Source of the DNA: a virus
Virus record (IMG/VR): IMGVR_UViG_3300046514_000687
Coordinates: 32,001-96,000 of that record
Length of the DNA stretch: 64,000 nt
Reading direction: 5' to 3' (one strand)
Under the pieces are notes generated by a model. That model was not told the DNA's origin. It saw only the letters and a program-made list of their open reading frames with translations, and ran no database searches. The position numbers and the translations under genes are program-made. Positions 18,365 to 35,326 of this stretch are shown piece by piece. Each line of letters starts with the position of its first letter. Positions within the stretch are counted from its first letter, which is position 1.

Positions 18365-18736
18365 CTAGTCGTCGGGCAGCATCAGCGCCCGGCGGAAGAT
18401 GCCGACGATCTGGGCGTGCTTGGCCGCGGCCTCCTCCCAGGTGTCCCAGCTCCAGCTCATCTCCGATCCCTTGTCCTCCGGGCCATCCTGCATCTGCAGC
18501 AGCGTCTCGAAGAGGGCGACCGGCTGCCCGGTGAGCAGGCTCTGCGCGCTCTGGCCGAGGAAGACCGTGCTGACGCTGGCGGAGCGCTCGGTGGCCGGGT
18601 CTTTCCAGCGCCAGAGGCCGACGCGCCGCGCCGCGATGTCCTCCACCAGCACTCCCCAGGCGAGCGCGTCCGGCGCCGGCACGGGCGTCTGTCCGTCTAA
18701 GACCCAGAGGCCACGGCTGAGCTGCGGGTCGCTCAC
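18365..18736 (-). CDS. Conserved-type phage hypothetical protein
   Basis: VSTVFLG...LFET...TWEEA...H pattern. Confidence 0.6.
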   Translation of the reverse strand: MSDPQLSRGLWVLDGQTPVPAPDALAWGVLVEDIAARRVGLWRWKDPATERSASVSTVFLGQSAQSLLTGQPVALFETLLQMQDGPEDKGSEMSWSWDTWEEAAAKHAQIVGIFRRALMLPDD

Positions 18737-19374
18737 CAGTGCACGTACTCCCGCGCGGCCAGGAGGTCGGCCGCGAGTCGCCTAATATCCCCACCGCGCT
18801 CGCCCTGCAACAGTGCCTGGCCCCCACGGCGCCAATAAACAGCCAGCATTACAATCTGGCGCCAGATTGCATAGTCGTGCGCCTTCTTAGTCCGTAACGG
18901 ATAGGCGTCAAAGTGCGGGATAATGGCGCTGTACAGCACGTCCCGATGGCCGACCTTCCATGTCAGGGTCGGATGTTCGCTAGGAGACACCCGCTTCCCG
19001 GCGTAGAGAGCGCCAATGCCGGTAGTCTCCCGGACTTCCTCAAGAACTGCGCGGTCGTCATCTCGCAACTTGATCTCGAAACAAAGGGTCAGGTGGCCTC
19101 TCAGTACCGAGGCCCGAAAGTGTCCCTCGCCATCGGTCAACCCAGTAAGCCAGGCGCCAAACAAGGGGTCGTAGGCTGGGATCTGCAGTGGCGGCGGCTG
19201 AAACTCTGACCTCACCTGATCCGCTCGTTCTCGTAAAAGCGCCTTCTCACGACGGTAGTAGTAGGTCTTGCGGCTTGCCTTGCGGCAGGTGCGGCAAGCG
19301 CGGAATCCATCGGGCGTCCAGTATAGGTTGCTACCGGAGTACGGATGCCCGGCTGGGCAATGGGTATGCTGCAC
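18733..19374 (-). CDS. LAGLIDADG homing endonuclease with N-terminal Cys-rich (THCP.GH..CR.C) domain
   Basis: WLTGLTDGEGHF, F.I....DD...L......GIG, IIPHFD.YPL.TKK..DY.IW. GTG at 19374 with AGGAG RBS. Confidence 0.85.
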   Translation of the reverse strand: MQHTHCPAGHPYSGSNLYWTPDGFRACRTCRKASRKTYYYRREKALLRERADQVRSEFQPPPLQIPAYDPLFGAWLTGLTDGEGHFRASVLRGHLTLCFEIKLRDDDRAVLEEVRETTGIGALYAGKRVSPSEHPTLTWKVGHRDVLYSAIIPHFDAYPLRTKKAHDYAIWRQIVMLAVYWRRGGQALLQGERGGDIRRLAADLLAAREYVHW

Positions 19375-19379
19375 GGCTC

Positions 19380-19673
19380 CTACCACTGGATGTACTCCAG
19401 GGTGGGGTCGCCACCTGGGCGGCGCCTACCGGTAGCGATGTCTCGATACCATCCGGTAGGCTCTCCCTCTCCACTCCAAAGCTGGAAGGCGACTACAGCC
19501 GCCCACAGGTCCGGGTATCAGTAGGTGGCGTCGTAGGTGATCGCCCGCCGGTCGGCGCTGACCGTCAGCCGCGGCAGCGTGTAGCCGAGGTTCAGGTCGA
19601 GCACGCGGCCGTCCGGAAACTCGCGGCTCAGCCAGCCGCGGTCGGGGGTGCAGGGCGCATAGAGTTCATCCAC
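19380..19673 (-). CDS. 97-aa protein with in-frame TGA at codon 52, candidate selenoprotein
   Basis: GTG with GGAG RBS. VDELY...ITYDATY-TGA(19520-19518)-YPDLWAAVVAFQLWSGEGEPTGWYRDIATGRRRPGGDPTLEYIQW-TAG. SECIS-like hairpin follows the TGA. Confidence 0.65.
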
Positions 19674-35250: not shown

Positions 35251-35326
35251 TGCCCGTGTACCGGCCGGTAGCTGGACGCAACCTATGAAGTTGCGGGAGG
35301 AGGTTCGACCCCTCCACGGGCAACCG
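35251..35326 (+). tRNA. Non-canonical tRNA-like gene, anticodon ATG (His-type)
   Basis: Acceptor TGCCCGT/ACGGGCA, D arm CCGGC-CGGTA-GCTGG, anticodon arm CGCAAC-CTATGAA-GTTGCG, T arm GGAGG-TTCGACC-CCTCC, 3' A-CCG. Confidence 0.6.

Follow-up and report, generated by a model that had tools for sequence, protein, structure and literature searches.

The gene family described here, including the gene with an in-frame TGA on the minus strand of the present phage sequence, is likely to be decoded as a selenoprotein. The probability that we assign to this reading is about 0.8, and the incorporation of selenium itself is inferred. The sequence that was analyzed, referred to as the window, is the whole stretch of 64,000 nucleotides corresponding to bases 32001–96000 of a 111,030-bp IMG/VR virus record, which has a GC content of 70% and represents an uncultured soil phage. 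In the proposed mechanism, the SelB/Sec-tRNA(Sec) system of the host would read UGA52 as selenocysteine, so that a phage protein of 97 residues would be produced. The signal would be a bacterial-type SECIS hairpin placed within the coding sequence, with a loop that begins 20 nt past the UGA. The phage, having neither tRNA-Sec nor a UGA suppressor tRNA, would be dependent on a Sec-competent host, and in the absence of selenium or SelB, the translation should end after 51 residues. The first-pass annotation of this DNA had already inferred a selenoprotein, and that inference is supported by the alternation of UGA with Cys, by the covariation of the hairpin, and by the selection acting on the downstream frame, with the insertion of Sec still being inferred. 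The binding of SelB and the role of the protein are likewise inferences, and there is no direct evidence of selenium in the protein.

As shown in Table 1, the minus strand from 19673 to 19380 forms a single frame, which starts with GTG at 19673 and consists of 51 codons, TGA, 45 codons, and TAG. The TGA stop of the upstream ORF, which encodes 97 amino acids (19959–19666), overlaps the GTG start of the read-through gene by 8 nt, and the downstream LAGLIDADG ORF starts at 19386 with an overlap of 7 nt with the 3' end of the gene. The locus had been described as one leftward frame coupled to both of its neighbors, and the coordinates and both overlaps agree with that description.

Table 1. Features of the read-through gene and of its downstream neighbor, given as positions in the window.
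Feature	Position	Strand	Basis
Whole read-through gene, 97 codons + stop	19380..19673	-	Frame; 512 relatives at E ≤ 0.001
N-terminal 51 codons	19521..19673	-	P0027 100% identical, 51 aa; GC3 0.92
In-frame UGA, proposed selenocysteine codon, residue 52	19518..19520	-	Aligned to Cys (36) / TGA (35) in viral loci
Upper stem-loop of SECIS-like hairpin, 7 bp, loop UGUA	19487..19504	-	Fold; columns covary in 36 homologues
Full predicted hairpin with lower stem CCGGA/UUUGG and CUG/CAG	19476..19514	-	MFE structure (covariation covers upper stem only)
C-terminal 45 codons with the family's most conserved motif, GEPxGWxR...TGRRRPGGDP..EY	19383..19517	-	Invariant columns; GC3 0.70
True stop TAG	19380..19382	-	Frame
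Neighboring free-standing LAGLIDADG homing endonuclease gene, outside the recoding device	18733..19386	-	PF00961, E 1.3e-14

The read-through product, in which the TGA was treated as a residue, has 24 relatives in the 90%-clustered protein database, and the exhaustive search with the 97-aa product extended these to the cluster representatives counted in Table 1. The product is a member of an unnamed and mostly viral family of approximately 95 amino acids. The search of Pfam and PHROG with the read-through product gave no family model. Pfam DUF402 (PF04167) was considered and rejected, as it reached 18.1 bits against a gathering cut-off of 23.9 and covered only residues 50–85. The viral scan with the single protein sequence gave no match, and the metagenome scans with P0001 and P0004 confirmed no relative, where sequences close to that of the window may have been excluded from the data scanned. 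The consensus of the family is YxDxWCY...AxxAxxxWDGxGEPxGWxRHPxTGRRRPxGDPxxEYV, and the TGA falls at its Cys. This agrees with the peptide pattern beginning YDD.WCY, which the first-pass annotation had given.

In the 79 called proteins of the family, the TGA column contains C in 51, D in 8, Q in 6, E in 6, H in 2, T in 2, and four singletons, one of which is Trp, and it is the sole widely conserved Cys of the family. The alignment of Cys to the TGA, which had been named as a check, was thus found in 51 of the 79 called proteins and in 36 of the 80 viral loci described below. The earlier wording of a conserved Cys holds in that Cys is the majority residue; it does not hold for about one third of the called proteins, where D, E, Q, H, and others occur. 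Judging from these replacements in the alignment, a Cys residue at the column is not universally essential.

The distribution of the recoded codon was determined by a degenerate-pattern scan of IMG/VR, which gave 80 viral loci that were translated in frame. At the aligned codon, TGA is present in 35 of these loci, TAG in one (L008), TGC or TGT in 36, and GAC, CAT, GAG, or AAC in nine. In the GTDB genomes, TGA was found on three MAG contigs and Cys in four genomes, where two of the three represent a single 83-kb contig that was assigned to two bins. The tree of the family was built with the TGA column masked, and many of its forks are unresolved. The TGA forms make up one deep half of this tree, comprising 37 distinct rows, and only two changes of state are required. 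The pairwise identities inside the TGA clade are as low as approximately 40%, which indicates that the TGA codon has been kept over a long divergence. Retention of the TGA in independent homologues, which the first-pass annotation had asked for as support, is therefore observed in 35 viral loci and three MAG contigs within a deep clade. The GC content of the TGA-form loci ranges from 51 to 72%, which suggests that the phages carrying them have several host groups.

The locus with TAG in place of TGA (L008:3100-3156; IMGVR_UViG_3300031939_000001) has the GGUC hairpin and the 45 downstream codons intact. Its GC content of 72.4% is the highest among all TGA-type loci. The pattern search of the viral collection for more TAG variants returned this locus alone.

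A stem-loop located 3' of the TGA, with an apical GU at +22/+23, had been reported for this copy and is present as described. The 5' arm extends from 19504 to 19498, the loop from 19497 to 19494, and the 3' arm from 19493 to 19487. The upper stem includes two G-U pairs among its 7 bp, and the lower stem extends the structure. The loop starts 20 nt past the TGA. The hairpin has a minimum free energy of −19.4 kcal/mol (z = −2.0), and an equally good fold was obtained for 10 of 200 shuffled sequences. Taken alone, the hairpin of this copy is only modestly better than chance.

The comparison among homologues is more informative about the position of the hairpin. Among the 36 distinct TGA forms, the best local hairpin of 27 has a loop that begins 20 nt past the stop codon, and that of one more a loop that begins 21 nt past it; a distance of 20 nt from the stop codon is equal to 23 nt from its first base. 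The loops of these hairpins have 4–5 nt and the stems 5–10 bp. No preferred position is seen for the best hairpins of the 36 Cys forms, which are scattered. In the gap-free alignment A3, the G and U of the loop (columns 31 and 32) are conserved in at least 90% of the sequences, and the loop is mostly GGUC, a sequence that is also found in the SECIS loops of fdhF and Moorella.

The pairing in the stem was evaluated for an 8-bp stem that was named by the analyst. In the 36 homologues, 78.8% of the cells pair, as compared to 63.4% in shuffles. The covariation score of the stem is 0.443, as compared to a shuffled mean of 0.178, and was matched by none of 500 shuffles; the score obtained with the partner slid along the alignment was 0.07–0.19. 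Six of the eight pairs vary on both sides. In the clearest covarying pair, each partner is the third position of an Ala codon (AU 9, GC 9, CG 7, GU 3, UA 2, and UG 1), and because these positions are synonymous, selection on the protein cannot explain the covariation. The same constraint explains why the AAV(A/V)A peptide is conserved only in the TGA forms. On these comparative data, the association of the TGA with the hairpin is far beyond chance.

RNAalifold applied to alignment A3 gave no consensus structure, and the support from covariation accordingly rests on pair counts for a structure named by the analyst. The Rfam search over 19380–19673 gave neither a SECIS element nor any other credible family. 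The covariance model R1, run over the whole window, gave no second site; this model also catches the Cys forms through coding similarity and does not isolate the hairpin. According to the rule for bacterial SECIS elements, the apical loop lies 16–37 nt after the UGA (PMC10778597). The spacing of 20 nt fits this published range and the stem covaries, so that the suggestion of a bacterial SECIS spacing made at the outset is sustained.

The hairpin might instead be a stimulator that is independent of SelB, with the UGA being read through by a standard amino acid, for example Trp inserted by near-cognate tRNA-Trp. In such a case, a fixed ratio of the 51-aa product to the 97-aa product would be expected. 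UGA is the leakiest stop codon in bacteria, the column tolerates several residues including one Trp, and no host Sec machinery is firmly tied to this phage, all of which can be counted for such a read-through. However, the loop sequence, the conserved GU, and the spacing of the hairpin are those by which SECIS elements of the SelB type are defined (PMC10778597), and the alternation is specifically with Cys. In addition, the TAG of L008, where the hairpin is kept, fits the known anticodon variants of tRNA-Sec (PMC5330540) and not the misreading by tRNA-Trp. We therefore regard the insertion of a standard amino acid as unlikely.

A second alternative is that the TGA is a true stop, where the locus would consist of two adjacent small genes translated with re-initiation, or would be a broken gene or an assembly error. 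The public annotation is in line with this possibility, as the gene callers have placed only the N-terminal 51 amino acids of this gene on record as a separate protein, P0027, and its two nearest relatives, P0004 and P0008 (approximately 80% identity), end at exactly the same residue. The sequence downstream of the TGA is, however, under strong purifying selection. In the 37 TGA forms, the differences at codon positions 1, 2, and 3 over the 24 codons from EPxGW are 0.217, 0.148, and 0.612, respectively, and the synonymous and non-synonymous codon differences over the same codons amount to 6987 and 4044. The purifying selection after the TGA in the TGA forms is at least as strong as that in the Cys forms. 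The conservation of the downstream frame, another of the checks proposed for this gene, is thereby met over the 24 codons scored.

Re-initiation is further opposed by the start codons, since no in-frame start codon after the TGA is conserved among the TGA forms and the 45 codons after the TGA of this copy contain no in-frame ATG, GTG, or TTG. The full-length Cys forms are single proteins, and the TGA is common to 38 divergent sequences. With regard to an assembly error, contigs of two other soil/rhizosphere runs (X8 record 23 and X9 record 27) span the TGA unchanged, where X8 record 23 comes from a variant strain that differs by two amino acids at other sites, I45V and N28S. At the level of assembled contigs, the concern that the TGA might be a sequencing variant of TGC or TGG is thereby lessened. 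A true stop at this position is thus considered very improbable.

The use of TGA elsewhere in the genome bears on whether the internal TGA is decoded according to its context. TGA is the stop codon of both flanking genes and of many other genes in the window. It is also the final stop in 22 of 39 TGA-form genes, where it is located 45–47 codons past the internal TGA. In a crude set of 114 high-GC3 frames of at least 100 codons taken from the whole phage record, the stop codons are TAG in 59, TGA in 45, and TAA in 10. Because TGA is an ordinary stop elsewhere, including in these genes themselves, a genome-wide reassignment is excluded, as the first-pass annotation had maintained on the basis of other genes ending in TGA. 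This usage, as far as it can be read from the sequences, argues for context-dependent decoding of the internal TGA. A genetic code that gives UGA a sense meaning everywhere in the phage or in its host (code 4 or 25), or a suppressor tRNA supplied by the phage to read UGA, can draw on the known recoding of stop codons in some phages and on the frequent use of TAG as a stop in this genome, but is hardly tenable given the stop usage described above, the absence of a UCA-anticodon tRNA, and a locus GC content of 51–72%, which is ill-suited to the low-GC lineages known for these codes. The share of TAG among the stops is unusually high for a genome with a GC content of 70%, as estimated from the crude frame set without a proper gene call.

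For decoding as a selenoprotein, the alternation of UGA with Cys, the covarying hairpin with GU in its loop at a fixed distance, the translation downstream of the UGA, and the use of UGA as a stop elsewhere can be regarded as established within the limits of comparative analysis. The machinery that would carry out the decoding is a separate matter. The phage record contains no tRNA-Sec and no tRNA with a UCA anticodon, and the phage itself has none of selA, selB, and selC. The tRNAs in the record are one tRNA-His and one tRNA with a CAU-type anticodon loop, and nothing else. The tRNA-His is located at 35251–35325 of the window on the plus strand, and ARAGORN assigned to it the anticodon AUG instead of the usual GUG. 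ARAGORN also reported an unusual tRNA of 91 nt, to which it gave an anticodon of two bases, at G000:C1:11200-11290, outside the window (L089:401-491). Its core was identified by Rfam as an ordinary tRNA with 40.6 bits and has the loop CUCAUAA, corresponding to CAU; it is not a tRNA-Sec.

Neither a tRNA-Sec nor a UCA-anticodon tRNA was found in five large genomes of TGA-form phages. One of these genomes has an array of more than 30 tRNAs covering most amino acids (L099/L100; G410:C1:35600-39400), which includes no suppressor and no tRNA-Sec. The phage with this array has a length of 191 kb and direct terminal repeats, and it carries the TGA form L068. As neither tRNA-Sec nor a UGA suppressor tRNA is present in the phage, the decoding must rely on the host.

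The two MAG bins with TGA forms (G002 and G003; Gemmatimonadetes RBC101 and Planctomycetota OFTM34) contain the SelB wing-3 domain, SelA, and tRNA-Sec above the curated cut-offs. In two isolate genomes with Cys forms, Mesorhizobium and Agromyces, SelB, SelA, and tRNA-Sec are absent. This comparison of the Sec machinery covers five genomes only, and selD was outside the search. The TGA-bearing MAG contigs look entirely phage, so that their links to hosts are a matter of binning only. Essentially the same 83-kb phage-like contig appears in two MAGs of different phyla, as L082 (CADEFQ010000013.1) and L083 (CADEFN010000011.1). These two MAGs are a proteobacterium and a Gemmatimonadetes, one of which is without SelB, and the presence of one contig in two phyla indicates that at least one bin assignment is wrong. 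Considering the small number of genomes, the all-phage contigs, and the duplicate bin without SelB, the tie of the TGA forms to Sec-competent MAG bins is suggestive only.

The nearest isolated phages have Mycobacterium, Gordonia, Rhodococcus, and Curtobacterium as hosts, with a protein identity of only 35–42%. The host of the present phage is probably actinobacterial, and the only host links are the two MAG bins that contain SelA, SelB, and tRNA-Sec. The SelB wing-3 domain was found in 268 of 401 evenly sampled genomes of Actinomycetota, which makes a Sec-competent host plausible. This tally includes 13 unpublished genomes (G151, G222, G176, G093, G023, G053, G006, G233, G125, G257, G328, G397, and G073).

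In bacteria, selenocysteine can also be encoded by UAG, as in the AhpC of Blastococcus saxobsidens, where it is read by a tRNA-Sec(CUA) (PMC5330540, S4 Fig). The TAG locus resembles this gene in having TAG at the position of Sec, with its hairpin and downstream frame intact; it differs in that the AhpC of Blastococcus saxobsidens is a host gene (PMC5330540), whereas L008 is a viral singleton without a host link. By this analogy, L008 would be compatible with a host in which UAG is read as Sec, as in Blastococcus saxobsidens (PMC5330540). It is possible, but rather doubtful, that phage selenoprotein genes follow the Sec codon of their host in general, where L008 would correspond to a host with a CUA-anticodon tRNA-Sec as in Geodermatophilaceae, and that such genes act as a selenium- and host-dependent switch, in which the 51-aa and 97-aa products report the Sec capacity of the host. 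If so, the Sec codon would be one of the determinants of host range and would also serve to predict it.

The proposed decoding can be compared with known systems. The bacterial genes with a SECIS element within the ORF, of which E. coli fdhF is the prototype (PMC10778597), have the same in-frame UGA with Cys homologues and use UGA as a stop elsewhere. They also have the same hairpin inside the ORF, with a loop 16–37 nt after the UGA (20 nt in the phage gene) and GU in a small loop (PMC10778597). In contrast to these genes, the phage gene is found in carriers that hold none of selA, selB, selC, and selD, and its family has no known function or fold and contains a single Cys/Sec without a redox pair of the CxxU type. 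In every feature that can be tested here, the mechanism deduced for the phage gene agrees with bacterial SelB/SECIS recoding. The protein itself is outside every known selenoprotein family.

Selenoproteins encoded by viruses have been documented in two poxviruses, molluscum contagiosum and fowlpox, in both cases as glutathione peroxidase (PMC8310308). These are likewise virus-encoded and rely wholly on the Sec machinery of the host (PMC8310308), and the SECIS element of fowlpox is also located within the coding region, as in the phage gene (PMC8310308). However, the poxviruses are viruses of eukaryotes with eukaryotic SECIS/SBP2 decoding, and the genes in question were captured from hosts and have known functions (PMC8310308), whereas the phage gene has a bacterial SECIS and belongs to an orphan family specific to phages. 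A literature search, together with a review of viral recoding (PMC8310308), revealed no selenoprotein reported for bacteriophages.

If the reading as a selenoprotein is true, phages exploit the Sec machinery of their hosts, and a Sec-competent host is predicted for any phage that carries such a gene. Such genes would be systematically shortened in public annotation, as illustrated by the 51-aa fragment that constitutes the public record here. In soil, infection could be influenced by the availability of selenium. The known selenoproteins would also be extended by a family to which no fold or function is assigned, and for which the naturally occurring variants with Cys, Asp, Glu, Gln, and His are ready comparisons.

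The structure of the protein was modeled with AlphaFold2 using 79 sequences, which gave a confident model with a pLDDT of 91.4 and a pTM of 0.81. In the model, four strands and one helix (residues 56–65) are accompanied by a C-terminal loop region that is structured. The end of strand 4, directly before the sole helix, is the location of residue 52. The Foldseek search against the PDB gave nothing at E ≤ 0.001, and the wide structure search with VIA-align gave a best Z of 5.2 and no fold assignment. The structure search of BFVD gave only uncharacterized phage proteins, with a best E of 0.014, and the protein atlas searched with the natural Cys homologue P0003 gave only unnamed viral clusters. 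No gene neighborhood is conserved across the loci; 11 loci have serine recombinases at a distance of up to 3 kb, and a few have ParB nearby. With low confidence, the product can be viewed as a small early or accessory protein in which the single Cys/Sec is a nucleophile or a metal ligand. Some lineages have Asp, Glu, Gln, His, or Asn in place of Cys/Sec, which would be in line with a role as a metal ligand or as an acid/nucleophile, although this is speculation.

This copy deviates from its relatives in several respects. Its loop is UGUA instead of GGUC, His78, which is present in at least 90% of the relatives, is replaced by Asp, and this copy forms the longest branch on the tree (1.56). The GC3 falls from 0.92 for the N-terminal half to 0.70 for the C-terminal one, whose codon usage looks foreign, is 0.69 in the adjoining endonuclease, and rises again to 0.94 in the gene that follows. 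At its end, the endonuclease ORF has 15 G/C-ending codons encoding ...REYVHW*, which is a near-copy of the C-terminus of the family. From this composition, it looks like a homing cassette may have replaced the 3' half of the resident gene, bringing part of a donor allele with it, where the old end was fused to the endonuclease. The atypical features leave some doubt that this allele is fully functional. They do not weaken the conclusion for the family as a whole.

The scan of the whole phage genome for in-frame TGA codons accompanied by a hairpin singled out this site alone. Another such combination is located at genome position 12761, within a low-complexity frame of Ala, Ser, and Gly.
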